Of a DNA stretch of 31,698 nucleotides, positions 3,166 to 31,698 are shown one piece after another. The notes beneath the pieces are model-generated. The model did no database searches. It saw nothing but the letters and a program-made list of their open reading frames with translations, and was not told the origin of the DNA. The position numbers were made by a program, and so were the translations under genes. Origin of the DNA: a virus (taxonomy: Duplodnaviria > Heunggongvirae > Uroviricota > Caudoviricetes); the IMG/VR virus record IMGVR_UViG_2565956729_000013, positions 1-31,698 of that record; one strand, written 5' to 3'. How positions within the stretch are numbered: the stretch's first letter is position 1; each line of letters begins with the position of its first letter.

Positions 3166-3722
3166 TATTTTTTATTCTCGTTAATATCCTGCGGTAATTC
3201 CGGCCATACAATTGTGGCATACGATGCTTTATCTGTAACCTGGCTGAATGTCATCTCCCGTAACGTTTTTGTATAAATACGGCAGGCTTTCAGTTTTTCC
3301 CTGTCTTCGTCGCTGATTAATCCCAGCAGCAGGTCTTTTTCCCATTCGCTGGTCATGATACTGGCCTGTTTTAACAGTGCATCACGCTCATCTTCCGCTT
3401 TAAGTTTGTAGTCGAAGATAAAATTGCCATCGCGGTAAAACCAGTAACCAGGCGCGGTAATACGGCGATTAGCGGTAATATCCGGAACTTCAATAACACT
3501 GGCGTTACGGGGTTCAATGCCTGTCACATCCTTACCGACCCACACCACGCGCCCGTCCCCGGAGTAAACCATTTTTATTGTGTCACTGGCAAAGTTCTTC
3601 TGTTCTTCATACCAGTTTTTGCCGTCTTCCGAAAAAAGCCAGGTGACACCATATTGTTTTGTCAGCTGATATTGTTCCGCGGTTTTCGGATTACCCGCAG
3701 TAATATTTTTTAAATGTAACAT
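3165..3722 (-). CDS. tail fibre assembly chaperone (Tfa, P2 G-like)
   Basis: 185 aa ORF immediately downstream of the H-like fibre gene (2-nt gap); size and position typical of Tfa. Confidence 0.75.
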   Translation of the reverse strand: MLHLKNITAGNPKTAEQYQLTKQYGVTWLFSEDGKNWYEEQKNFASDTIKMVYSGDGRVVWVGKDVTGIEPRNASVIEVPDITANRRITAPGYWFYRDGNFIFDYKLKAEDERDALLKQASIMTSEWEKDLLLGLISDEDREKLKACRIYTKTLREMTFSQVTDKASYATIVWPELPQDINENKK

Positions 3723-3724
3723 TG

Positions 3725-5593
3725 TTAAACACTCGCCACGTTATACCAGGTGCCATTAATCAGTTTCTGAAGCGGACGGTAATACACGCCGCCGATGTTA
3801 TCTGCCGAATTACTTCCGGTTTCCTGCACATTAATACCGGATAACCCGTGGCCTGAAGGTGAGCGAAATGTCCAGGATACCTGGTTACCTCCCGGGTTGT
3901 AATACATTTCGGAACCATAACGCACATCCTGCACGCCGCCATTTCGCTGCTGATAACGGGCATCGAAATTTCCATAGTTTGATGGGGTCATCTGTCCGTT
4001 TACAGCGAATGTGATACTGCCATCGGTATTTCTCTGGCTGTAAAAATGCCAGCCGGAATCATCACCAAGCTCTGCAACTACAGGTCGGGATGAATTACCC
4101 CATAAATTAAACGTTGCGTTTTTCGTGGAGTTGTTGTCGCTGGATAACGTGAATTTTTTAGCATTTCCGGCCTGAATATTTTTTAACGCTATTGCCACAC
4201 CATTCTGGAAACGAAATACATGCTGTCCATTCGCATAAACATCCAGAATGCCGTCGCCGTTTTGTTTTATACCTGTATCGTTATCCCCGAAAGCAATTGA
4301 GTTTCCGCCCAGCGCGTTCTGAACGCCGATACCCAGCGCACCATTGACCTGAGAACCGCCGCCAACAGACACTTTATGCGACATGGATATTTCACCCGTC
4401 CGCAGATTAATAGTGAACGGTCGAAGTGGACCAATATCGCCATTCTCGCCCTGACCTTCACTGGTAGGGATAAGGTGCAGGCACTCTTCCGAACGACGAA
4501 AAATCAGACCAAAGGCTTCGTTGAAAATCCTCAGCGCATTAACACCACGGATTTTCAGTTCCCCGGTCATGGTGTCGCCGTCACGCTCAACAGCGCCTTT
4601 TGCCTTATCCATTGCGGCTTTTACTGCCTTTGATGTGGCGGCGCGGTCTTCTGCGTCGCTGTCGGTGGAGTTGCTGTACTGCGCAAAGCCTTTCTCCTTC
4701 AGTGTTGCGTCCGGATGACGGCGGGATTTTTCGTGCTCTGCCAGTGCATTGCTTTGTTCTTCATCGGGCGTCTGTGGACGTAAATCCTGTAAGCCTTCTG
4801 ATGTCAGTTTCGCAAGTGGCGCGACAAAGTGTCGGAAGCCGTTACCGTCTGTATAGGACGCATGTTCCTGGCGGGCGCAGAACGTAAAAACGGTATTCCA
4901 TTCGCCGGTAACAAATCCCTGCCAGCTTGCATCAATCCAAATGGTATCCCCGACCGCAGCCGGCAGGCTGTAAGGTTCGCGCAGACTGACGCGCAGACCT
5001 CCCACATAACCCACGCCGGCGGCAACAGTAGCGGTACCATCCTGATAGCTGACCTGAAAACCATCCCCCAGAAAAGCGGCTTCACCGTAGTGATCAAACG
5101 CCAGCAGCCGGCGGGCCTCATCCATTCCTGCAAGGCGTGCAGTGAAATCAATCTGCCAGACATCAGCACTGACATCGATATGCATTGCTGCGGCTGCGCC
5201 GTCAAACTCCATGGAAAATGTGCGGATCAGGTTGTTTCCCTGTACGCCGTTCGCTGTTTTAATTTTTTGCTGACGAGGTGTGTGTGCAATCATGCAGAGC
5301 ACGCCGCTTTCTTCGTTCAGCAGACCGATCCAGTTGTATTCGAAGTCGCCGACTGTCGTGTCCAGAATGATGGAAAACGCGGTCGCGTTCGGCGACAGGA
5401 GGCCGTACTGGGTGACCGGCGCACGATACTGAATCATGGATTCATCAGGGAGTATCTCATCGCGGGGGATCTCTGCGGATTCATCCTGTCCCGGAATATA
5501 TGCAAAAACAAATGTATCCGGGCGCGCAGGTTTTCCACTGATGAGCTGATTCGCACACCAGTGTTCGTACTGTTCAGTAATAATCGTGCTCAT
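3725..5593 (-). CDS. tail fibre protein (P2 H-like)
   Basis: 622 aa; conserved fibre N-terminal domain plus Gly-rich repetitive C-terminal region; start overlaps upstream stop (ATGA). Confidence 0.85.
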   Translation of the reverse strand: MSTIITEQYEHWCANQLISGKPARPDTFVFAYIPGQDESAEIPRDEILPDESMIQYRAPVTQYGLLSPNATAFSIILDTTVGDFEYNWIGLLNEESGVLCMIAHTPRQQKIKTANGVQGNNLIRTFSMEFDGAAAAMHIDVSADVWQIDFTARLAGMDEARRLLAFDHYGEAAFLGDGFQVSYQDGTATVAAGVGYVGGLRVSLREPYSLPAAVGDTIWIDASWQGFVTGEWNTVFTFCARQEHASYTDGNGFRHFVAPLAKLTSEGLQDLRPQTPDEEQSNALAEHEKSRRHPDATLKEKGFAQYSNSTDSDAEDRAATSKAVKAAMDKAKGAVERDGDTMTGELKIRGVNALRIFNEAFGLIFRRSEECLHLIPTSEGQGENGDIGPLRPFTINLRTGEISMSHKVSVGGGSQVNGALGIGVQNALGGNSIAFGDNDTGIKQNGDGILDVYANGQHVFRFQNGVAIALKNIQAGNAKKFTLSSDNNSTKNATFNLWGNSSRPVVAELGDDSGWHFYSQRNTDGSITFAVNGQMTPSNYGNFDARYQQRNGGVQDVRYGSEMYYNPGGNQVSWTFRSPSGHGLSGINVQETGSNSADNIGGVYYRPLQKLINGTWYNVASV

Positions 5594-21257: not shown

Positions 21258-21572
21258 TCACTTCGGGAAAAACGCCTGAATATTCTTTTTCACCTGCTGC
21301 ATATGGGGGGCGTTGTCTGCTGCTGGTTGCGCCGGTTTTTCAGGCTGTACTGGTAGCGGTGGCATCCGTATTTCGTCTTCTGACCATTCTGCCAGCGAAT
21401 ACGCCAACGCGGGGGTGCGTTTTATAAGAGCCAGTCCGGCCAGAAAAGCCGCGCGTTGTGCGCGGCTGCGTTCGGAGGCTGGCAGGCTGTCGAGGTAACT
21501 GCACGCCTCCCGTTCGCTCTTGACGACGGCGGGCTTCAGATAGAAACTTATTCGTCTGGTTGGTGTCGTCAT
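21258..21572 (-). CDS. parR: ParR-like centromere-binding protein
   Basis: 104 aa; DSLPASERSRAQRAAFLAGLAL resembles recalled R1 ParR DSIPQGERSRLNRAALTAGLAL; AAGGAG RBS; directly downstream of parM. Confidence 0.7.
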   Translation of the reverse strand: MTTPTRRISFYLKPAVVKSEREACSYLDSLPASERSRAQRAAFLAGLALIKRTPALAYSLAEWSEDEIRMPPLPVQPEKPAQPAADNAPHMQQVKKNIQAFFPK

Positions 21573-21576
21573 TGAT

Positions 21577-22536
21577 TTACTCCTTGTCCATTGCGTACAG
21601 CCCATTAACCAGAGCAAACTGTGGCACCCCGTCCGCGATGAAAGTCGCATTAACTCCGCAGGCTTCGCGGATAGCGGGTGCCACAATCTTCGCTCCTCCA
21701 CCTACAACCATCACCCGCCCGTAACCCGAAAAACCCGCCAGCGCGCGGATCACGCGTTGTTTCAGTGTTTCCTCCTTTTCACGAATAACTGCCATCAGGC
21801 TGGCGTAATGTGCGTTATTGTGGATGTGCTGGCGCAGCCAGGCTTCATCGTGGCGATGTTCGATAATGGTATTAGCGATGTGGTGACTGGTACGCATACC
21901 GTTGGTGGCCATCACCGACAGCACGGCATCGGCCATCAGAGAAACGCCTACGTGTGGATCGCAAAACACCTGGCTGATACCTGCCAGTTGCCCCTGAACC
22001 TTTGCCACATCCAGCGTGGTTCCGCCCAAATCCACAATCAGCAGGGATTCAAACGGACTCATGTCAGCCAGCGCTTTAAAGCCAGCCGGAATGGATTCAG
22101 GCATAACCCGCACGTTACGGATAGTGAATGCCTCACCGTTCTGGTACTCCACCGGGCGCATAACGTTCGCTTTTTTGCGGTTGATGTTGGCCATGTCCGG
22201 CTGTGCGTTTGTGTCGAAATACTCGCTCAGTGGCAGGGTGACAACCACATCCACCTCCTGAGGCGTGATGCCTGATTTGACCAGCGCGTGATGAATGGCA
22301 ATGACATTCACATCGCTGTACTGGTATTGCGTGTCGGTCGTCTGGACAAAGCGATCGCTGACCGGATCAAAACCATAGCGCACGCCATCAAGCATGTAGT
22401 TCGCGGGCTGCGTGCCACCGAACGGCGCAGACCATTCCGACTTGAAGCTGTTCGGGCTGATGGCGTTGCGGCGTTCGCCGTTCTCAGTCCATGCCAGTTT
22501 GATGTTGGTGGAGCCGTCGTCGATACAAATTTTCAT
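21577..22536 (-). CDS. parM: ParM/StbA actin-like segregation ATPase
   Basis: 319 aa; motifs IDDGSTNIKLAW, YSDVNVIAIHHAL, VMPESIPAGF, LIVDLGGTTLD, GYGRVMVVGGGA match recalled plasmid R1 ParM along its full length. Confidence 0.85.
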   Translation of the reverse strand: MKICIDDGSTNIKLAWTENGERRNAISPNSFKSEWSAPFGGTQPANYMLDGVRYGFDPVSDRFVQTTDTQYQYSDVNVIAIHHALVKSGITPQEVDVVVTLPLSEYFDTNAQPDMANINRKKANVMRPVEYQNGEAFTIRNVRVMPESIPAGFKALADMSPFESLLIVDLGGTTLDVAKVQGQLAGISQVFCDPHVGVSLMADAVLSVMATNGMRTSHHIANTIIEHRHDEAWLRQHIHNNAHYASLMAVIREKEETLKQRVIRALAGFSGYGRVMVVGGGAKIVAPAIREACGVNATFIADGVPQFALVNGLYAMDKE

Positions 22537-22564
22537 GTCGATTTTCCTTATGTTGATTAATTAA

Positions 22565-22679
22565 TCGTTTACGGGATTCTGAAATCCCGTTCTTGCCTGT
22601 TTTGTACGCGCCTCATATTTCGCCGCGTGTTTTTTGCTCATTTACGGGATTTGTGAATCCCGTTTTTGTCTGTTTTTTG
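22565..22679. repeat. parC-like centromere/promoter repeats upstream of parM
   Basis: Two ~40-bp direct repeats (22565..22604 and 22638..22679), each with a dyad ACGGGATT-N4-AATCCCGT (22570..22589; 22643..22662), then a T-rich CTGTTTTGT segment. Confidence 0.55.
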
Positions 22680-25435
22680 TTTCCACTGGTTAGTCCACCC
22701 CGCAGCAGCTCTGCTTTGCGGCGGACGCGTTCAGTGGTTTCACTGATTCTCTGTGCGTGCTCTGCGTCACGGATGGCACGCAGCATGTCAGAAAGCACGG
22801 TAACGGGTGTTTTCATGGTGTTCTGGTCCTGCTGAAGTGTGGATGCCAGGCGTGCGGCGGCTTCGGGGTCTGATGCCCTCAGCTGTGCCAGATAGCTGGC
22901 GACCGGGTTATGACGGATCTCCGTGCTGCTTACGCCGTGATTACGGCTCAGGCGCTGCCAGAGCTGCGTGATTCGGCTGTCCGGGCGGGTATCCGGTTTG
23001 CGTACAATTTCAAATCCCTGCGGTGCAATGATGCTGCCGTCAACGTACAGACTGCCGCCCCGTAACAGGTGCTGCATCTGCTGTTCACCGATATGCAGGC
23101 CAAGGGATTCAGCAGACTCCCGCCATTCTTTAGCGAGTAATTCGTGGTTATCAGGCAAAGGCCGCTGCTGTTTGCGGCTCTGTGTCCAGCTCTGCATTTC
23201 ATCACTGCTGTTTTTTGCCTGTTTGTCACGCAGCGAACGCATCAGCGCCCGGCGTTCGTGCCGTTTCAGTGAGCGCATCCATTCATTCACGTCAACGCTG
23301 TCAGGAAGCTGCGGCCACGGTGCTGGCCGTTCTTCCGGCTGTTCTGTCCCGTTGTTGTCCGTTTCCTGTACACGGGGACAGTTATTGCCACGAGTCCAAG
23401 GGGCGGCAGGGCCGCCCTGAAGGTCAAAACCATTTTCGTGGGCGTTGTCTTCCGGTTCTGGTTTACGTCTTACCAGCTTCCAGTTATCCGGATGCGTGCA
23501 CACACGGGAGGATTCCCCGATGAGTGGTGACCAGATCCCGTAAATCTGTACGCTCTGTTCGCCGTAATCATTCAGCTCATCTGCGAGGTCGTAGGCGGTG
23601 CGAATCAGGTAGTCTTTGCGTGGAACAAGTACGCCGCCCTGTTTCTCAATGTAGGTGGCAAAACACCCGGCATCAGCGGCAGCGAGTACCGCATCCATTG
23701 CATCATCCTTCAGCCGTTGTGGGCCTTCCGGGTTGCGTGCCATCTGGCTGGCAAGGCGGCGCAGTTCACGCCACACCTGACGGGAGGGGATGCCAAAGAA
23801 CTGGAACTGGCGGACCCGGTGAAGGCGCGCCCAGCCGATGGCGCGTTCCACACTCTCGGCCATTGATTTTCCGGTTTCGTGGTCAACGCGTGGCTTGCCC
23901 GTTTTCGGGTCGATGCCATCCACGGCGCGGCTGTCCAGGTTCTTTCCGATGTAGGTGGCGATGTAGCTGGTTGGCGTGCCTTTTGAGCCGTCGACGTACT
24001 CCGCCTTAAAACGCGGAGTTATGTCATCGCCCAGCTCGTGGCGGTCTTCCTGAATGGCAATATCGCAGACGTGGGACACGATGGTTTCAATCTCGTCAGG
24101 ATGAGCAAAAACCATCATGTGCCAGTGCACCGTGCCGTCATGATGAGGCTCCACCGTGCGGATGCCATACCAGCGCAGGCCGTCGCGGTTCAGTTTTTTG
24201 CGGACCGCCGCAAAAAACGTGTTAACCAGGTAATCGCTGGAGTCGCGCATAGTGGCCCCGTTCCATTTGGGATTCGGATGACCGTTCTCCGTTGTTGCGT
24301 GGTATTTTGACGGGCAGGTGACAGTCAGAAACACCGCTCTGTCGCCACGGGCTTCGGCCAGAAGTTCCAGCCCCTTCATGGTGGCCATCATTTCTGCCTT
24401 ACGGTGAACCGGGTTACTTACTCCCGCGTAATACACTGTATCGAGATCAATCGTGAACCCGTCTTCGTTTTCCAGCATGAAACTTTTCAGGAAATCGCGT
24501 GTTTTCTCGCGCTGTGCGCGAAACTCGCTTAACGCGTTCTGGCTCAGATAGGGTGATGTTTTTCTGGAAACCAGACAGGCGGCGCGGAGTTGTTCTTCTC
24601 TCCACTCGCAACGTAACAGCCACAGTTTGCGTTTCCACCAGTCCGCACAGGTCAGGCGAAGGATTGCGCCCGGCAGCAGCTCCGTGTCTGGTTCGTTCTT
24701 CCGGTCTTTGTCTGTTGTCAGTGCGTCATAATACGGCGGCACGGTGTGCAGATGTAACGCCATGCGGGCCAGCATCTGATACACCTTCAGCGTTATATCC
24801 ATAGTCAGCTCGCCATCGGTCGCGCCAAAGCCATCGCAGAGCTTTTCGAAGGTGCTGCTGAACATCGCCGCCGTCATGGTGGCCAGCGTCTGTATCTGGT
24901 GCTTGTTGAGCTGTGGCAGGTACAGCAAATCGTCCAGGCGTTCACGTCCGGCAAGGGAGCGATAACCCGGAGTCAGCCAGTGACGGTCGGTGCAGTCCAG
25001 ACGTTCGAATATTTTGCGCAGGGTTCCGTGCGCGTAACGTTCAGCCTGCCAGTTCTTTTTTCCTTTCCGGCGATCGGCTTCCTGTTTTTTGCGCAGGAAG
25101 GAGAGGTGGCGAATAAGCGGATCGCGCAGATAGGACGGCAGCAGGCGCAGCGAGGCCATGGCTTCATCCACCGCGCCGCGTGCCTGTCTTCTGGCGTCTC
25201 CTGCCAGCGTGATGGTTTTGTCCTGTTTTTCCTGTGCGTCCAGGCTTTTATTAATCAGGTTGCCCAGCGGCGTGGCGGAGAACGCCGCATCAGCCATTTC
25301 CTGGCGGCGCTCGTTCTCTGCCCGGTAGGCATCCAGCCAGGAGGAAAGCGCGGATTCAGGAGCGGGGATCCCCGTTCCTTCACGCCCCACTGCGTGGCGC
25401 GGTTGTTGCCAGTCCCTGATGTACTCTGCCGTCAT
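22613..25435 (-). CDS. replication initiation endonuclease (P2 A-like rolling-circle initiator)
   Basis: 940 aa; metal-binding motif HWHMMVF typical of the family; 3' end overlaps the second parC-like repeat. Confidence 0.8.
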   Translation of the reverse strand: MTAEYIRDWQQPRHAVGREGTGIPAPESALSSWLDAYRAENERRQEMADAAFSATPLGNLINKSLDAQEKQDKTITLAGDARRQARGAVDEAMASLRLLPSYLRDPLIRHLSFLRKKQEADRRKGKKNWQAERYAHGTLRKIFERLDCTDRHWLTPGYRSLAGRERLDDLLYLPQLNKHQIQTLATMTAAMFSSTFEKLCDGFGATDGELTMDITLKVYQMLARMALHLHTVPPYYDALTTDKDRKNEPDTELLPGAILRLTCADWWKRKLWLLRCEWREEQLRAACLVSRKTSPYLSQNALSEFRAQREKTRDFLKSFMLENEDGFTIDLDTVYYAGVSNPVHRKAEMMATMKGLELLAEARGDRAVFLTVTCPSKYHATTENGHPNPKWNGATMRDSSDYLVNTFFAAVRKKLNRDGLRWYGIRTVEPHHDGTVHWHMMVFAHPDEIETIVSHVCDIAIQEDRHELGDDITPRFKAEYVDGSKGTPTSYIATYIGKNLDSRAVDGIDPKTGKPRVDHETGKSMAESVERAIGWARLHRVRQFQFFGIPSRQVWRELRRLASQMARNPEGPQRLKDDAMDAVLAAADAGCFATYIEKQGGVLVPRKDYLIRTAYDLADELNDYGEQSVQIYGIWSPLIGESSRVCTHPDNWKLVRRKPEPEDNAHENGFDLQGGPAAPWTRGNNCPRVQETDNNGTEQPEERPAPWPQLPDSVDVNEWMRSLKRHERRALMRSLRDKQAKNSSDEMQSWTQSRKQQRPLPDNHELLAKEWRESAESLGLHIGEQQMQHLLRGGSLYVDGSIIAPQGFEIVRKPDTRPDSRITQLWQRLSRNHGVSSTEIRHNPVASYLAQLRASDPEAAARLASTLQQDQNTMKTPVTVLSDMLRAIRDAEHAQRISETTERVRRKAELLRGGLTSGNKKQTKTGFTNPVNEQKTRGEI

Positions 25436-25441
25436 AGTGAT

Positions 25442-25807
25442 TTACTTCGTCATGCCATTCAGGGTGTCGCGGCAGACTGTAGCCAGCCGCTGAATTTCCA
25501 GCACGGTGTCTTCTGTGTCGGCATGGCGATGTGTGATGCGGATGCTGTCGGCAATCACATCGACGATTGCAGAGGATGGGCGCTGGTAAATGCCAATAAC
25601 GGACGGGGTGCCACCTTCAATGCGGTAAAGCCTGTAATTTCCCTCGTGGCTGTCAATCATGTAGCGACCGTCAATAACAATCTTTCCGTCAGCGAGCTGC
25701 GGTACAGGCAGGGATTTCAGGTACATGTCATAACGTTCACGCACGCGAACGGCAAGATCACGCTCTGTGTTGAGCAGGTATTCAAGAAAGTCGTTGGCGA
25801 GAATCAT
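25442..25807 (-). CDS. hypothetical protein (121 aa)
   Basis: AGAGGA RBS; stop 7 nt before the A start. Confidence 0.55.
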   Translation of the reverse strand: MILANDFLEYLLNTERDLAVRVRERYDMYLKSLPVPQLADGKIVIDGRYMIDSHEGNYRLYRIEGGTPSVIGIYQRPSSAIVDVIADSIRITHRHADTEDTVLEIQRLATVCRDTLNGMTK

Positions 25808-25879
25808 TGCGGCAATCCTCTGGTTACTGATGTGCGAAGGCCTCCCGCCGCAAGGTGCAGGAAGGGCCCGGAACAGGAA

Positions 25880-26110
25880 TTAATGGAGTTTGTTTTGCTG
25901 CTGGATGAGATCCTGAAGAGACAGGAGGTCTTCCGCCAGATAGCTGAATACAGCGGCGCAGTAGTCGGCTGAAATAGTGCTGTTGAGTCTGTGCAATGTG
26001 TTGGATTGCATGATAAAGGCGATGTGTGCGGCGCGGGTGAGTCTGCGATCGATTTCAGTCTGGATGTGACGACGCTCCGCGATAGCGCGGTGCTGTTTGC
26101 GGTTTGCCAT
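25880..26110 (-). CDS. hypothetical protein (76 aa)
   Basis: AAGAGG RBS upstream of ATG at 26110; first gene after a 368-bp non-coding gap. Confidence 0.5.
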   Translation of the reverse strand: MANRKQHRAIAERRHIQTEIDRRLTRAAHIAFIMQSNTLHRLNSTISADYCAAVFSYLAEDLLSLQDLIQQQNKLH

Positions 26111-26447
26111 GGTGTGGCCTCTTTGGTTGTAAGTTTTGAAAACTCACCATCCAGAGGTGGAAAACTCGGGGTGGTGAGACGTACAGGGTTTCCACAACCG
26201 GCAACTACAGAACCCGGCCCGACCGAAGTCGGCCCCATACGCCCCACCATAATTCGTGTGCGAAAAAGACGTGGCGATACGGTACGCACAAAAAAACCGC
26301 TGGCGCGGTTGTGCGCTTTGGTTGTCAGCGGGGTGGAAATCCCGGCACCCGTTTTATGAGGTGCAGCGGAAATGTAACCTGACTGATTGCGGCATGGCAA
26401 GTGGTTTTTTTGTGAGAACGGCATACTAAAAAAATCCTGATACTGCT

Positions 26448-26472
26448 CCGGCCAGCGATTTTCACTGGCCGG
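26448..26472 (-). terminator. putative terminator hairpin after the SPFH gene
   Basis: 8-bp GC-rich stem CCGGCCAG / CTGGCCGG with 9-nt loop, 6 nt past the stop; the T-run on the transcribed strand is ~14 nt distal, so non-canonical. Confidence 0.4.
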
Positions 26473-26478
26473 GTTTAA

Positions 26479-27303
26479 TTACTTCACCGGAACAAACGGA
26501 ACAGCGGTGTTGCTGGTCATGTATTGCGGCAGCGTGCCGTTCCATTTGTTGATTGCTTCCAGCTCCATAACGCCGGGATTCTGGCGCAGAGCTTCACCGC
26601 GTAAACGAATGGCGTCGGCTTCAGCCTGGGCTTTTGTGCGAATGGCATCAGCCTGTCCGGCAGCTTCTGCGCGCAACATGTTGGCTTCTGCTTCACGTTG
26701 CTTGACTTCCTGTTCGCGTTGCAGGGTTTTCTGGTTTGCCGTGACTTTGGCATTAATGCTGTCGATAACGGTTGACGGGTACTCCGGCTTACCCACATAT
26801 GAGAGGCTCATTACCTGAATACCGATGGGTGTCATTTCCTCCTGAATGTCTTTAAGAGCTGCATCCAGTAGTTCAGATTTCCCTCCGTCGATAAATTTGT
26901 CGGTGGTCATTTTGCTGGCCAGTCGGTTGAGTGCATCGGCGATCTTCTGGCGCAGGTCAGTGTCGGTAATGTCATCCACGCCTTTGCGGTAGGTCTGAAA
27001 CACTGTAGTAACTTTGGATGGATCAACCTTGTAGGCCACACCGATGTGATAGCCGATGGTTGTGCCGTCACTCATCTGGAAGCTGAACGGCTCATCGTAG
27101 GCCTTCATTTGTTTGAAGGTCGGGAAGATGTAAACCTCGGTATTCCAGCCAGTCCAGTAGCGGCCAACGCCAACCACTTCGCCGACGCCTTTGTCGTCGC
27201 CCAGTTTGTTGACTTTGATGCCCACATTACCTGGCTCAACGCGATCGCAACCAACCAGGAAGATGGCGGCAAAAAGCGGGATAACCGGAAAGAGTTTTTT
27301 CAT
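26479..27303 (-). CDS. SPFH/band-7 (stomatin/prohibitin-like) lipoprotein
   Basis: 274 aa; signal peptide with lipobox LVGC; SPFH-like core then Ala/Glu/Arg-rich coiled-coil tail; start overlaps upstream stop (ATGA). Confidence 0.8.
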   Translation of the reverse strand: MKKLFPVIPLFAAIFLVGCDRVEPGNVGIKVNKLGDDKGVGEVVGVGRYWTGWNTEVYIFPTFKQMKAYDEPFSFQMSDGTTIGYHIGVAYKVDPSKVTTVFQTYRKGVDDITDTDLRQKIADALNRLASKMTTDKFIDGGKSELLDAALKDIQEEMTPIGIQVMSLSYVGKPEYPSTVIDSINAKVTANQKTLQREQEVKQREAEANMLRAEAAGQADAIRTKAQAEADAIRLRGEALRQNPGVMELEAINKWNGTLPQYMTSNTAVPFVPVK

Positions 27304-27503
27304 GGTTTGATTTCCTCAATGTATTTACTGAAAAAGCGAACAACGCCTGCCGGGTACAGCATGGCAATGAAAATGCCCAGCAATACCAGGAAGGAGCTGT
27401 CTGATGAAATCATTCGGGGGAGTAGTCCTGCATACAGAATGAGAGAAACGAGGACGCATACCAGCGCCCACATGTATGCGCGAAACCAGGTCTTTTTGTT
27501 CAT
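27300..27503 (-). CDS. small two-helix membrane protein, coupled to the SPFH gene
   Basis: 67 aa with two hydrophobic segments; translationally coupled to downstream SPFH gene. Confidence 0.6.
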   Translation of the reverse strand: MNKKTWFRAYMWALVCVLVSLILYAGLLPRMISSDSSFLVLLGIFIAMLYPAGVVRFFSKYIEEIKP

Positions 27504-27514
27504 GCTGCGATCCC

Positions 27515-27814
27515 TTACTGGTTAAGGAAAAAATCAAAAACGTTATTGATGCGTTGTAATAACTCGCGCTGTATTGCTTCCGGTGTTTCCGGTTCGCCAG
27601 GTGAACCCAGCGTTGCGCAGAAATCAGCGATTTCATGATGGAGCGTCAGGCGAATGGCTGGAGCCATGGTTCTGGCGTGCTCCAGCTCATCCAGCAGTGC
27701 CAGCACAGCAGACGGCGAGAGCATTGCGCGAAACGCCAGTAATTTTTGATGCGTTGCCATTCGTTGCAGGCCAGTCGCCAGTTCGCGTAGCTTCTGGTGG
27801 TTGATGGTGCTCAT
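27515..27814 (-). CDS. hypothetical protein (99 aa)
   Basis: Start overlaps upstream stop (ATGA); part of the coupled early cassette. Confidence 0.55.
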   Translation of the reverse strand: MSTINHQKLRELATGLQRMATHQKLLAFRAMLSPSAVLALLDELEHARTMAPAIRLTLHHEIADFCATLGSPGEPETPEAIQRELLQRINNVFDFFLNQ

Positions 27815-28056
27815 GCTCTGGCTTCCTTCAGTAGCTGGTTAAACATGCGGGTGAGTGGGTTGCTGCACCCGAACGGCATCGGGTTTACCTGGTAAGAGAA
27901 CCGACCGCCTGTTTTGCGTTCTTCTCTGATGACTAAGCCGTCGCGCCAGAGTCGGCGTAACTCCGCATTAATGGTTGTGGTTGGGGTATTCAGTGCTGCG
28001 GCGATTTCTCCACCGCTACAACCCGGATTGGCGGCGATGTAGTCCAGAATGGTCAT
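27811..28056 (-). CDS. winged-helix DNA-binding protein (putative regulator)
   Basis: 81 aa; wHTH-like segment GEIAAALNTPTTTINAELRRLWRDGLV; ATGA coupling to the upstream gene. Confidence 0.55.
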   Translation of the reverse strand: MTILDYIAANPGCSGGEIAAALNTPTTTINAELRRLWRDGLVIREERKTGGRFSYQVNPMPFGCSNPLTRMFNQLLKEARA

Positions 28057-28256
28057 CTGCGTGACTCCTGTACCTGTCGGATAAGGTTCACCCGCGCCAC
28101 ATTCGTGGCGCAGAAGTAAGTGCCGTCAGTGAGATAGATGTGATGTGCATCTTTTTCTGAACGGTGTTTGTCGATAGTGGTAATCAGGCGTTCGTCGACC
28201 TCGTATTCGCGCCCTCTGGAGGTAAAGCGAACGACGGGAAAATGCTTAATTGCCAT
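28053..28256 (-). CDS. hypothetical protein (67 aa)
   Basis: ATG at 28256 (MAIKHFPVV...) with AAGAGAG RBS; track start at 28274 is TTG. Confidence 0.45.
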   Translation of the reverse strand: MAIKHFPVVRFTSRGREYEVDERLITTIDKHRSEKDAHHIYLTDGTYFCATNVARVNLIRQVQESRR

Positions 28257-28279
28257 TACGCTCTCTTTGTCCAATAGCC

Positions 28280-28690
28280 CTATGCGTTAAATACGGCACG
28301 TTGCGTGCCATCAATGAATACGGCCTGAGTGCGTTCTATCAGGCGGAGATTTGTCAGAACTTCTGACTCTCTTACGGGGTAAGGGGTAATCAGGTATTTG
28401 TCCTGCAATTCGGCGATAATGATGTATTGCTGTAGCTCCGAGCCAATAATATGAATAAGGTGTCCAATGTCAGATAAATTCAGTCTGGTGGTTGGTTGTG
28501 TTTTGAGAACCGTTAGTTCAGCATCCTGTTTTTCGATGATTTCGGCTGCTTCGGCGGTTATTCTTGTTATCATCATGGCCGTGGTGGCAGGCCCAATCAT
28601 TCCTGCATTTGTTGCATCCTGAATGGCTCTGTTTGCGGTCTCCGATATATTTTTTAGCGCAGTTACAATGCCTTTTTCTTTTGCGTTCAT
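28280..28690 (-). CDS. hypothetical protein (136 aa)
   Basis: GGAG RBS; preceded by ~95-bp AT-rich gap that may hold an internal promoter. Confidence 0.5.
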   Translation of the reverse strand: MNAKEKGIVTALKNISETANRAIQDATNAGMIGPATTAMMITRITAEAAEIIEKQDAELTVLKTQPTTRLNLSDIGHLIHIIGSELQQYIIIAELQDKYLITPYPVRESEVLTNLRLIERTQAVFIDGTQRAVFNA

Positions 28691-28783
28691 TTTTGTATCT
28701 CCGTTATTTACGTGTGCGAATACCTCCGCTAATGCGGATGGTTTTCACGTTTTCTTATTTAATCTGGTGTTTTGTTTGTGCTG

Positions 28784-28897
28784 TTATTCGTCAGAGAAAA
28801 AACGTTCAATCTTTTTCACTGAATGAATAATTCGCATAATCCCAATGGCGCAGGCCACCGAAATAATCAGAACAATCCATGACATAAATATACTCAT
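28784..28897 (-). CDS. small hydrophobic peptide (37 aa), putative
   Basis: Manually translated: MSIFMSWIVLIISVACAIGIMRIIHSVKKIERFFSDE; ATG overlaps upstream stop (ATGA); below track size cut-off. Confidence 0.35.
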   Translation of the reverse strand: MSIFMSWIVLIISVACAIGIMRIIHSVKKIERFFSDE

Positions 28898-29136
28898 GCG
28901 ATATTCCCCAGCTTATACGGTTCAATATGTTCTCCGCATTCTGCGGCGCAGACGAGTTCGGAAAGTTCGTTAAGTGCATCCAGATCATCAGCGTAAAAAG
29001 CCACGTCATACAGACTCCGGATTGCCCTGGTCAATGAGTCACGGGCTGCACGTTCAGCATGAGCGCCTGATGCACTTAAGCGAAAATAAAAACGCTCAAG
29101 TGCTTTGTTAATGAGAGTTTTATATTCTTTGCCCAT
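28894..29136 (-). CDS. hypothetical protein (80 aa)
   Basis: ORF in the early operon; 13-bp palindrome TTTTCCCGGAAAA just upstream. Confidence 0.5.
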   Translation of the reverse strand: MGKEYKTLINKALERFYFRLSASGAHAERAARDSLTRAIRSLYDVAFYADDLDALNELSELVCAAECGEHIEPYKLGNIA

Positions 29137-29156
29137 TGCATTTTCCCGGAAAACAA

Positions 29157-29411
29157 TTAAACAAAATCTCTTAATGGTTTACCTGATTCAATGCGCTCAA
29201 TTGCATCGTTAATGGCCATGTATGCGGCGTGATCACCTGCATAGCGTGCGCATTCCTGTAGTGACTTTAATCCGCTGATAGTATCGCTTTTTGCTTCCGA
29301 TAAAGGTTTCACCGTATTTAATGCATCACGGGCATTATTATCTATGAGTCGGTGTATGATAAGAGTGTAGGCCGAGGCTATCTCTACCATGTTTTTTGTC
29401 GTTGTTGCCAT
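29157..29411 (-). CDS. hypothetical protein (84 aa)
   Basis: Tightly packed early-operon ORF (3-nt gap to upstream gene). Confidence 0.5.
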   Translation of the reverse strand: MATTTKNMVEIASAYTLIIHRLIDNNARDALNTVKPLSEAKSDTISGLKSLQECARYAGDHAAYMAINDAIERIESGKPLRDFV

Positions 29412-29414
29412 TGG

Positions 29415-29765
29415 TTAATTCCCCCGTGGATGCTGAAAACTACGTCCTGCAATTAAGCGGTCAACCGTGCGTAGCGCTTCGTACAATGTAAAATCCTGTC
29501 CGAACTGATTGTCGCCGTTGCTCAGTGCAAAAATGCGGTTTCCGGTAAACGGATTGCGTGGGCATTTGTGGACCGCGATTCCAGCTTTCTCAATCAGCCA
29601 GGTGTGCTCGCCGATTTGTTTTACGGGGTAGCCATCCGGCGTTGCGTGTGTTTCGCTCAGGCTGTAGCGAGAGTTGCTGCGTGATGCACTGGTAGCGAAA
29701 CGGTTAGCATGGCGTTCTGCACCGTTGCGGAAGCGCTGCTGTGGAGAATTACGCCGCTCCTTCAT
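29415..29765 (-). CDS. hypothetical protein (116 aa)
   Basis: First ORF downstream of cox in the early operon. Confidence 0.5.
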   Translation of the reverse strand: MKERRNSPQQRFRNGAERHANRFATSASRSNSRYSLSETHATPDGYPVKQIGEHTWLIEKAGIAVHKCPRNPFTGNRIFALSNGDNQFGQDFTLYEALRTVDRLIAGRSFQHPRGN

Positions 29766-29802
29766 ATCAAAATACTCCGTCTAAAATGAATTATGGTTTG
29801 GG

Positions 29803-30228
29803 TTATGCTGCTTTACCGCTGATGTTTCTGTTTCGTCTGCCACTTGTTGGCTTAAACAAAAACAGACGGTTTTCCCAGTCGTGCCATTCCTGAGGTGCGT
29901 TTTCGATGAGGCGATCGCATGCTTCATCCCACGCTTTTCTGTTGATGTAGAGTTCAGCGTTTCCGCCTGGCTTGAGAGGGTCCGCCATATACACCGCAGG
30001 TAGCTTTCCTGCTTTTGCCATGCTTACGATGGCATCAACGGTCTTTCCGATATACATCGCAAATCCTTCTTTTGACAGGAGATGCGAGGGATTTTCTGAA
30101 AGTCGAATTTCTTCACGTTCACGTGCTTTGCGTCCTGTTTTTTGATGCTCACCTTCTGGCATTTCTGACAGGTGATCGCATCGTGTTCCGCAAAGTGACT
30201 CAGGCGCGTTTTGAGTGCTTTCTTGCAT
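29803..30228 (-). CDS. cox: Cox-like excisionase / early-promoter repressor
   Basis: GFAMYIGKTVDAIVSMAKAGKLPAVYMADP resembles recalled P2 Cox EFAKLIGKSTGAVRRMIDKGKLPVIDMTDP; ATG at 30228 has GGAGG RBS (alternative ATG at 30162); divergent from C. Confidence 0.7.
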   Translation of the reverse strand: MQESTQNAPESLCGTRCDHLSEMPEGEHQKTGRKAREREEIRLSENPSHLLSKEGFAMYIGKTVDAIVSMAKAGKLPAVYMADPLKPGGNAELYINRKAWDEACDRLIENAPQEWHDWENRLFLFKPTSGRRNRNISGKAA

Positions 30229-30342
30229 CTGATATCCTCCGCTATTGGTGCTTTTTCTAATTGGCACTAGTTGGAACCACTTAGAACATTTGTTTGCTGT
30301 TCATATGTGGTGTTAATCTACACATATGTAGGAGTTTGTCAA
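30229..30342. promoter_or_regulatory. immunity switch region (divergent early and repressor promoters, operator repeats)
   Basis: Three direct repeats at 10-bp phasing (TTGGCAC 30261, TTGGAAC 30271, TTAGAAC 30281) and inverted repeat CATATGTG-N11-CACATATG at 30302..30328; promoter hexamers not assigned. Confidence 0.55.
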
Positions 30343-30636
30343 ATGGACATTCCTCAAAAAATTCGCGTCATGCGTAAATCTGAAGATCTCACTCAGCGGG
30401 AATTCGCTGATATGATTGGGATTTCTTATTCTGCTCTGACCAGTTATGAGTATGGTCGTAACCTTCCTGGCCTTGAGATCACTATCAAGCTTTTCAAGCA
30501 CCCAAGATTTTCTAAATATCGCGACTGGTTTTTGTTTGATGAAGTTGAACCTAAGGCCGGGCAGGTTGTACCGGCTCTCGCACACATTGGGCAAAACGAA
30601 GCGGAATTATCCCGCTCCGGCAAGAAAACTGGTTAA
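30343..30636 (+). CDS. immunity repressor (P2 C-like)
   Basis: 97 aa; RVMRKSEDLTQREFADMIGISYSALTSYEYGR and C-terminal PALAHIGQNEAELSRSGKKTG resemble recalled P2 C; GGAG RBS. Confidence 0.8.
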   Translation: MDIPQKIRVMRKSEDLTQREFADMIGISYSALTSYEYGRNLPGLEITIKLFKHPRFSKYRDWFLFDEVEPKAGQVVPALAHIGQNEAELSRSGKKTG

Positions 30637-30702
30637 CGGTTCACCAGGCATTTATTTCCCAGAGCTGTGATCAAGATGATGTTTTCATTGGAGGGCTTCC
30701 TT

Positions 30703-31698
30703 ATGTCGATTAAGAAGCTCGCTAATGGCAAATTTTGTGTGGACGTGCGGCCAGCTGGATCAGAAGGAAAGAGATTCAGGCGGCGATTTGATACTCGTGG
30801 TGAGGCTGTTTTGTATGAGCGTCATGTATTGCAGCATTACCACGACAAAGGCTGGGTTGATAAGCCAACAGAACGGCGCTCGCTGAGGGAGTTGCTGGAT
30901 TGTTGGTGGTTGTATCACGGTAAAAATCATCCTTACGGTGCGATGGAGCGAGTGCGTATTGCTGCGGTCATTAGTGATCTTGAAAGTATTAATGTTACAC
31001 GCAGTGATCAACTTACTCGTAAAAACATAATTAATTATCGGTTATTGTTGCTTAACCGCGGAATAAAACAATCCACGGTTAATCGTTATTGCGCAATGAT
31101 GAGTGGTTTTTTCACAAAACTAATTGACGCAGAGGAATATTCTGGGGCTAATCCGTTTCATGATGTGAAAAAACTTAATATCAAACAGCCTGAAATGGCT
31201 TATTTGTATCATGAAGATATTCCACGATTACTGGAGTTGTTATTTGGTGATGAATTAAAAGCCGTCTTGTTGTGTCTGGCAACAGGTGGAAGATGGAGTG
31301 AAGTTGCAAATATCAAGGGGGAGCATGTTATTAGCGGCAAAGTCATTTTTATGGAAACCAAAAATGGGAAGCGTCGCGTTATACCTATATCGTCAGAACT
31401 GGAGTGTATGATTAAAACAAAGGCCACTGGTCGTTTAATTTATCCAAGTTATTCTGCTGTCAGAACGGCTATCAGAAAGGTGAGGCCCGATCTTCCTGAA
31501 GGGCAGTCGATACATGTTTTACGGCATACCTTTGCCACTCACTTCATGATTAATGGTGGGAATATCATCACTTTGCAGAGAATACTTGGACATAGCACTA
31601 TTCAGCAGACGATGACCTATGCCCATTTTGCACCGGATTATCTGCAGGATGCTGTGCGTTTTAATCCTGTGGCTGAGTTGTCCAGATATTGCCCATAA
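30703..31698 (+). CDS. int: tyrosine integrase (P2 Int-like)
   Basis: ATG at 30703 (MSIKKLANGKF...) with GGAGGG RBS; C-terminal HVLRHTFATHFMINGGNIITLQRILGHSTIQQTMTYAHFAPDYLQDA nearly matches recalled P2 Int; stop is the last 3 nt of the window. Confidence 0.9.
   Translation: MSIKKLANGKFCVDVRPAGSEGKRFRRRFDTRGEAVLYERHVLQHYHDKGWVDKPTERRSLRELLDCWWLYHGKNHPYGAMERVRIAAVISDLESINVTRSDQLTRKNIINYRLLLLNRGIKQSTVNRYCAMMSGFFTKLIDAEEYSGANPFHDVKKLNIKQPEMAYLYHEDIPRLLELLFGDELKAVLLCLATGGRWSEVANIKGEHVISGKVIFMETKNGKRRVIPISSELECMIKTKATGRLIYPSYSAVRTAIRKVRPDLPEGQSIHVLRHTFATHFMINGGNIITLQRILGHSTIQQTMTYAHFAPDYLQDAVRFNPVAELSRYCP

Follow-up and report, generated by a model that had tools for sequence, protein, structure and literature searches.

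A two-gene SPFH lipoprotein module in the early operon of a P88-like prophage and its occurrence among unrelated phages

The window analysed here is the whole 31,698-nucleotide stretch of the virus record IMGVR_UViG_2565956729_000013 (IMG/VR), which derives from a P2-family prophage of the P88-like type (genus Xuanwuvirus). On the minus strand of its early operon, two adjacent genes encode a small protein of 67 amino acids (aa) with two transmembrane (TM) segments (27300-27503) and a 274-aa SPFH/Band-7 lipoprotein (26479-27303). Together with a 3′ hairpin (26448-26472; 11-bp GC-rich stem) these two genes represent the actual genetic unit, an accessory segment of 1.1 kb which is horizontally mobile among unrelated phages. 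The pair is a widespread, conserved phage membrane module and as such a real but moderate lead; nothing yet shows that it is a defence system.

Delimitation of the accessory unit

In a blastn comparison with the sister phage P884B11, homology ends at 26414 and restarts at 27514, and the junction sequences show ~17 nt in place of the 1.1-kb segment. As delimited by this comparison, the mobile unit (26415-27513, minus strand) comprises a ribosome binding site, the two-TM gene, the SPFH gene and the hairpin.

A first-pass annotation of this DNA had described a self-contained moron of five open reading frames (ORFs), chained by ATGA start-stop overlaps, ending at a hairpin and located between cox and gene A. 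All five ORFs exist with the proposed sizes on the minus strand, and they do lie between cox and gene A. In the order from the cox-like gene downstream, the pair is preceded by (i) a 67-aa early ORF (28053-28256, ATG at 28256) matching PHROG 3459, which aligned to residues 7-73 of a longer, TTG-started version, (ii) an 81-aa MarR-type winged-helix protein (27811-28056; MarR_2 1.6e-8, HTH_24 5.9e-8), and (iii) a 99-aa Ead/Ea22-like early ORF (27515-27814; weak Ead/Ea22 similarity, PHROG 4144). Since all five ORFs have PHROG family matches and the SPFH gene shows a low ratio of non-synonymous to synonymous substitutions (see below), they are more than chance reading frames. Of the four junctions, three are ATGA overlaps (28053-28056, 27811-27814 and 27300-27303), the last one indicating translational coupling of the two-TM and SPFH genes. 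The chaining breaks at the fourth junction, where the 99-aa ORF and the two-TM ORF are separated by an 11-nt gap, and this non-overlapping junction is the exact boundary of the inserted segment.

The distribution of the genes was determined among 5,426 complete Escherichia coli genomes. The three upstream ORFs are present in 1,266 of them (1,041 at a coverage of at least 80%), the segment with the two-TM and SPFH genes (pair or SPFH gene alone) in 535, with 198 matching places on plasmids of ~91-131 kb, and the whole five-ORF stretch in 116. All five ORFs, including the 1.1-kb segment, are also present in P88; P884B11 and the majority of P88-like prophages in E. coli have retained the upstream three without the pair. 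These three ORFs are thus core genes of the P88-like lineage and not part of the unit, and a single five-ORF cassette was rejected on these distribution data, since the upstream three mostly occur without the pair. The expectation that the cassette is not a conserved core part of related phages consequently holds for the pair, which P884B11 lacks, and fails for the upstream three. Nor did the self-contained five-gene moron survive, since it combines these core genes with a pair for which no promoter was detected in three contexts (see below). Presence in some and absence from other close relatives, one mark of a moron, does apply to the pair itself, as P884B11 and most P88-like prophages are devoid of it.

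In the P88-like early operon, the slot occupied by the pair is flanked by the Ead/Ea22-like ORF on one side and the isrK/C4 RNA locus on the other. A synthetic 'empty-site' query (flanks joined, pair deleted) yielded a ranked sample with 37 full-coverage rows, 32 of which represent an empty slot, three the SPFH pair and two other cargo. The latter consists of genes for a 186-aa 'DNA-binding protein' and a 48-aa ORF in E. coli STEC316 (L012, 1290-2024), and for a 183-aa hypothetical protein in E. coli E400634 (L013, 1290-1841). This variable hotspot thus accommodates several alternative inserts, of which the pair is one. A compositional anomaly of the pair was not found (GC content of 52% vs 50-52%).

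The SPFH lipoprotein

The assignment of an SPFH fold to the 274-aa protein was borne out. It matches Pfam Band_7 (PF01145) with 105.5 bits (gathering cut-off 23.6; E 4.4e-30) across profile positions 2-176 of 176, and PHROG 200 ('lipoprotein') with 2.4e-111. Apart from PHROG 200 and 1130, the PHROG matches of the pair comprised 38808 and 21428 (fragment families of unknown function) and a weak 'protease' match. An AlphaFold2 (AF2) model has a mean predicted local distance difference test score (pLDDT) of 65, rising to 70-92 in the core (residues 63-240); as it was built on a shallow alignment of 23 sequences with at least 74% identity, the N-terminal 60 and C-terminal 30 residues are unreliable. 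The modelled layout comprises strands at 57-93 (confident from ~63), helices at 95-160, a strand at 162-174 and a helix at 177-241, i.e., the α/β core of SPFH proteins, followed by a helix of ~65 residues and a conserved KWNGxLP tail. Foldseek retrieved PHB1/2, HflK/C and erlin1/2 as top, full-length matches (E down to 3e-11); the match probability is 1.00 for PHB1/2, HflK/C, erlin, stomatin and flotillin, the latter two ranking below erlin. By sequence, the nearest relative with a solved structure is HflK (E 6e-4), and the nearest NCBIfam models, both below their cut-offs, are HflC (24.3 bits, cut-off 134.4) and HflK (23.4 bits, cut-off 159.4).

The N-terminus displays the signal peptide of a lipoprotein (MKK, hydrophobic core, lipobox L-V-G-C) with Asp at position +2. 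The lipobox is near-invariant among the 23 aligned homologues, and wherever the Cys is kept, position +2 is Asp, or Glu in two of them; in three of the 23, the lipobox Cys is replaced by Tyr. Asp at +2 is classically known in E. coli as the signal by which lipoproteins avoid the Lol pathway. The mature lipoprotein is therefore predicted to remain anchored in the inner membrane and to expose its SPFH domain to the periplasm, the same topology as in HflK/C. Ring or cage assembly of the protein may be expected by analogy with the behaviour of its family. The mature sequence has a dN/dS of 0.01-0.09 versus the copies in other phages, with dS up to ~1, and is under very strong purifying selection.

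As a side observation, the Tyr variants P0106, P0111 and P0120 (motif IIGYDRVEPG) are located on ~110-kb contigs of SSU5-like phage-plasmids and belong to an abundant cluster. Without the Cys, lipidation of these homologues is impossible, and another mode of anchoring or processing is required.

The two-TM partner

The pairing of the SPFH protein with a small two-TM protein was likewise confirmed. The 67-aa partner contains hydrophobic segments at residues 6-33 and 31-58 and matches PHROG 1130 ('membrane protein', 7e-22), a family placed in the category 'moron, auxiliary metabolic gene and host takeover'. The loop between the segments bears the motif G-L-L-P-x-M-(I/V)-S-x-x-(D/S)-(S/T), which is common to the partners of P88, P1-like, Stx2/phiP27, SSU5, Pylas and PVP-SE1 phages and of further relatives. 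Because positive residues are found at both ends of the protein, an N-in/C-in topology is predicted, with the conserved loop in the periplasm. Across phages, partner size ranges from 61 to 78 aa, and partner identity is 24-56% between phages whose SPFH proteins share 91-93%; the partner diverges fast and yet keeps this one loop motif.

A comparison with the partners of YqiK/QmcA-type SPFH proteins had been suggested, but the phage partner turned out not to be an NfeD protein: four partner variants had no match to NfeD (PF01957) at Pfam E <= 10 and nothing above chance, and no Pfam family was found for the 67-aa partner. A tblastn search of the partner against phages, which is too insensitive for a short TM protein, retrieved 24 records, all from genera that also carry the SPFH gene. 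A phmmer search against 1.8 billion representatives gave 13 matches. One of these (P0130, 493 aa) was considered as a partner-SPFH fusion and rejected as a spurious repeat protein. In another protein (P0001, 347 aa; P1-like 94-kb contig, 8 member sequences), the partner is fused in frame to the SPFH signal peptide. P0001 might represent a working single-chain form of the pair or result from a frameshift artefact; the fusion is consistent with an N-in/C-in partner, a periplasmic SPFH domain and a physical link between both proteins.

Occurrence of the pair among phages

The SPFH gene recurs at 87-92% nucleotide identity in Stx2-converting phages and phiP27, where the pair adjoins xis and int, and in P1-like phage-plasmids. 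In P1 variants, the pair is located between tRNA-Thr (trnT) and tRNA-Ile2 (trnI) upstream of ban and replaces tciABC of reference P1. Stx2 phage, phiP27 and the P1-like elements contain an ORF of 62-78 aa with two hydrophobic segments, unannotated in GenBank, which overlaps the SPFH start codon. Annotated examples of the pair are found in SSU5, a phage-plasmid, and in Pylas, a virulent N4-like phage of Klebsiella. The overlap of the partner gene with the SPFH start is found in P88, Stx2, phiP27, P1-like and Pylas phages; in SSU5 there is a 3-nt gap, and in the virulent PVP-SE1 the partner is located one small gene upstream of the SPFH gene. The SPFH protein is common in prophages of Shiga toxin-producing (STEC), enterotoxigenic (ETEC) and extraintestinal pathogenic E. 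coli (ExPEC).

At the protein level, SPFH homologues were found in 628 of 50,697 phage records (~1.2%), many of them from virulent phages; the carriers include N4-like, PVP-SE1-like, Bruynogheviruses, Kayviruses, phiCbK-like and crAss-like phages as well as haloarchaeal viruses. SPFH homologues are also present in phages of plant and environmental bacteria, and SPFH genes are annotated in giant viruses. A peculiarity to P2-like phages is contradicted by this spread as well as by the existing annotation of the pair in P88 and in PHROG 200/1130.

Two further observations concern these contexts. The exchange of the TerB-like tciA-tciB-tciC for the pair (L004, 3898-5931, vs L006, 13349-15009) reveals another exchangeable cargo slot, flanked by tRNA genes. 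In the Stx2 phage (L003) and at the equivalent place in phiP27 (L005), the 185-bp gap just upstream of the two-TM partner is non-coding except for a strongly hydrophobic ORF of 35 aa, MKNNRELSRVKLLLILATVLTITEIIILFIALSVS (L003, 3685-3792, minus strand), which might represent a small membrane peptide or a toxin-like gene.

Hairpin, promoters and early-operon context

The hairpin starts 6 nt after the SPFH stop codon and has a folding energy of -25.4 kcal/mol; the 81-nt region around it has a z-score of -3.0 and folds better than all but 2 of 200 shuffles. It is kept in P88; the short GC hairpin behind the gene in Stx2/phiP27 is a different one. Since the U-run starts 12 nt past the stem and a terminator scan did not call the structure at 26448-26472, it is not a canonical intrinsic terminator; of the hairpin end proposed earlier, the structure itself is real.

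A σ70-like promoter directly upstream of the pair was not found in three temperate contexts (window, L003 and L004), and in the window no σ70-like site is present on the pair's strand between the pair and the next insert upstream. Here, the pair is co-oriented with the Pe genes. In the Stx2 phage, the nearest good site upstream of the pair is the PL-like promoter beside cI, and in the P1 variant the pair resides inside the C1-controlled ban operon. In SSU5, Pylas and PVP-SE1, the pair is neighboured not by lysis or virion genes but by genes for recombination, RNA polymerase, dUTPase and exonuclease, and in all contexts it is co-oriented with neighbouring early-type genes. From the early-type placement, the missing promoter of its own and the presence in virulent phages, judged by crude scans and annotation, we infer that the pair is expressed early in lytic development and not from the repressed prophage. 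It looks like a set of accessory genes co-transcribed with repressor-controlled early operons, not like a classic autonomous moron.

Relation to known systems

As a sequence, the pair is already known: it corresponds to PHROG 1130 plus PHROG 200 and to gp11 (membrane protein) and gp12 (lipoprotein/'putative SPFH domain protein') of P88, which share 95% and 97% aa identity with the pair in the same slot and genus. There is no difference of substance to gp11/gp12, whose entries are annotation only. Several genome papers mention phage SPFH genes and speculate on membrane modification, control of lysogeny or adsorption, or treat them as curiosities "whose reason for being in a phage is unclear". 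In the searchable literature, no paper citing the accession numbers of the P88, phiP27, SSU5 and PVP-SE1 homologues was found, and a survey of SPFH proteins in Pseudomonas does not mention phages. The first-pass statement that no role has been described for an SPFH pair in P2-like phages is in agreement with this literature. Added here is that the enterobacterial version is a conserved two-gene unit with an ignored, often unannotated two-TM partner, that it travels between very different phages, and that it is wired into early operons, unlike a lysogen-expressed moron.

Compared with HflK/HflC, the FtsH-associated proteins of E. coli, the phage protein likewise combines an SPFH domain with a long helix, predicted on the periplasmic face of the inner membrane. 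HflK/HflC, however, have an N-terminal TM anchor and form a K/C heteropair, whereas the phage encodes a lipid-anchored protein from a single SPFH gene and a 67-aa non-SPFH partner; identity to HflK/C is 16-18%, and the bit scores remain below the NCBIfam equivalog cut-offs. Prohibitins PHB1/PHB2 and erlin1/2 provide the best full-length Foldseek matches (E 3e-11 to 6e-10), are of similar size (~270 aa) and have a non-cytoplasmic SPFH domain, but represent eukaryotic, heteromeric, TM-anchored rings with ~16-18% identity. In SPFH-NfeD operons (QmcA-YbbJ, YqiK-YqiJ, PH1511-PH1510), the SPFH gene is also translationally linked to a gene for a small membrane protein; the phage partner differs in lacking an NfeD or OB-fold domain and in its size of only 61-78 aa. 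QmcA and YqiK face the cytoplasm, whereas the phage SPFH protein is predicted to be periplasmic. The pair is thus a variant of SPFH systems, with a lipid instead of a TM anchor, a predicted periplasmic orientation, a single SPFH gene and a non-NfeD mini-partner.

Outside the SPFH family, Imm and Sp of T4 resemble the pair as an early-expressed small inner-membrane protein together with a periplasmic protein, Sp being a periplasmic protein of superinfection exclusion (PMC7677548). This is a functional analogy only: Imm/Sp are no SPFH system, and no sequence or fold relationship to the pair was found. The TerB-like TciA-TciB-TciC of P1, encoded in the same trnT-trnI slot of the ban operon, are unrelated proteins, the equivalence being purely positional.

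Proposed role and alternative explanations

The explanation that best accounts for the data as a whole is a mobile, accessory, early inner-membrane module with a cage and a protective role, for and against which we consider the chances to be even. The SPFH lipoprotein would be exported, lipidated and held in the inner membrane by Asp at +2. Its SPFH domain and long helix may then oligomerise into a prohibitin/HflK/C-like cage on the periplasmic face, for which the two-TM partner would supply a membrane-embedded element through its conserved periplasmic loop. Such a cage might condition the inner membrane of the lytically committed cell against secondary insults, chiefly the entry of superinfecting genomes. 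Most characterised early envelope proteins of phages protect the infected cell against secondary insults; because of this, and because the layout recalls T4 Imm/Sp, we tentatively suggest, with distinctly less than even confidence, that the role of the pair is protection of the inner membrane, above all against superinfecting genomes, as an analogue of Imm/Sp. More speculative, and rather doubtful, is the picture of a viral 'inner-membrane cage' which walls off membrane patches early and either bars phage genomes and pore-forming immune effectors or captures FtsH.

Several points weigh against this reading. The promoter scans are crude consensus matches, and a weak or non-σ70 promoter inside the 99-aa ORF is possible. 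The AF2 model is only moderate, with residues 9-62 and 244-274 at pLDDT <50. The residue at +3, Arg in the present case, can modulate retention by Asp at +2, and lipidation is not indispensable, because the large SSU5-like cluster has Tyr for Cys. Neither protein shows homology to the superinfection-exclusion PHROGs, and the pair matches no PADLOC defence model: in PADLOC-DB v2, the SPFH protein has no match at E <= 10 and the partner only a chance-level match to PDC-M18B (0.025). Strong purifying selection and spread among distant hosts suit a conserved host target at least as well. Moreover, no experimental function of any phage SPFH protein was found in the searchable literature.

A conserved host target is at the centre of the strongest alternative, i.e., a protease-control module in which a periplasmic SPFH cage mimics or competes with HflK/C and re-tunes FtsH or another quality-control client. 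In a manner reminiscent of lambda CIII, it would increase the stability of phage proteins or host factors during early infection. To our knowledge, every well-studied SPFH cage that faces the non-cytoplasmic side serves as a scaffold for a membrane protease or degradation machine; the partners of the PHB1/2, HflK/C and erlin cages are membrane AAA proteases or the endoplasmic reticulum-associated degradation machinery. HflK as the closest solved relative, HflC and HflK as the closest NCBIfam models, and PHB1/2, HflK/C and erlin as the best structural matches all fit this explanation, as do the predicted HflK/C topology, the extreme purifying selection across hosts and lifestyles, and the position of the pair in a PL-type early operon of lambdoid phages. 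However, identity to HflK/C is low, and the ~24 bits compare with equivalog cut-offs of 134-159; the phage protein has neither the N-terminal TM helix nor the K/C heteropair, the P88-like early operon contains no cII-type gene, and virulent carriers make no lysis-lysogeny decision. Control of FtsH or a similar client is in our view rather unlikely.

A defence or conversion moron, expressed in the lysogen from an undetected promoter and providing abortive infection or exclusion to the host population, is improbable. It would agree with the presence/absence polymorphism in a slot also taken by other inserts, the PHROG 1130 category, the replacement of the TerB-like tciABC in P1 variants and the 3′ hairpin. 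Yet the three scanned temperate contexts contain no promoter-like site upstream of the pair, which in the window is separated from the preceding ORF by just 11 nt; its GC content is undistinctive, the SPFH protein lacks a PADLOC match even at the permissive threshold, and close homologues occur in strictly virulent phages.

The prophage-island HflK/C-like SPFH protein PM0222 of Pasteurella multocida is reported to be secreted in outer-membrane vesicles, to activate TLR1/2 and to contribute to virulence in mice (PMC9872710). By analogy, the SPFH protein, a predicted lipoprotein common in STEC, ETEC and ExPEC prophages, might be released, e.g., in such vesicles, and act on the animal host; this is highly improbable, since Asp at +2 predicts inner-membrane retention and not exposure on the surface or in vesicles, and its occurrence in phages that are virulent or that infect plant and environmental bacteria favours a phage-centred function. 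Just as far-fetched is one regulated five-ORF cassette with the winged-helix protein controlling the membrane pair: tight spacing, ATGA overlaps at three of four junctions and joint presence in P88 and 116 E. coli genomes would speak for it, but most prophages with the upstream three lack the pair, lambdoid, P1-like, SSU5, N4-like and PVP-SE1 phages carry the pair without the upstream three, and the sole junction without overlap coincides with the insertion boundary.

Whichever function applies, a vague annotation is turned into a testable system in easy hosts (P88, P1 variants and Stx2 phages in E. coli). Should the cage exclude phages or control FtsH, the pair would link recent structural work on SPFH cages to virus-host conflict. 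It would then be the first case of a prohibitin/HflK/C-like cage that is encoded by a virus and whose role in infection is defined.

Neighbouring genes and composition of the prophage

The right-hand third of the window (21420-31698) shares 93-95% identity with Escherichia phage P88. Positions 1-21420, presumably with virion and lysis genes, have no nucleotide match to P88 except for two short tail-fibre matches at ~3463-3760. The prophage is therefore a mosaic in which the resemblance to P88 is confined to the early/immunity third.

Downstream of the pair, the insertion point is adjoined by an isrK-like small RNA gene (26290-26364, minus strand; Rfam RF01394, 64.3 bits), for which the promoter/terminator scan indicates a promoter-like site of its own (26400-26371) as well as a canonical terminator (26310-26295). 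It is followed by a C4-type antisense RNA (26167-26254, minus strand; RF01695, 79 bits) of the early operon just upstream of gene A. Beyond the two RNAs, a 76-aa 'derepression protein' (25880-26110, minus strand) and a 121-aa ORF are encoded, and then gene A. This isrK/C4/derepression arrangement resembles the immI locus of P1/P7 or the IsrK-AnrP anti-immunity locus of Gifsy-1; RefSeq records label the stretch a pseudogene of an 'ash family protein'.

Directly upstream of the 67-aa early ORF, an insert at 28270-28710, absent from P88 and P884B11, contains a 136-aa ORF (28280-28690, minus strand; PHROG 9338 of unknown function, GC content of 44.8%) with a promoter-like site inside it (28473-28446, minus strand). 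This insert represents a second variable cargo slot of the same early operon.

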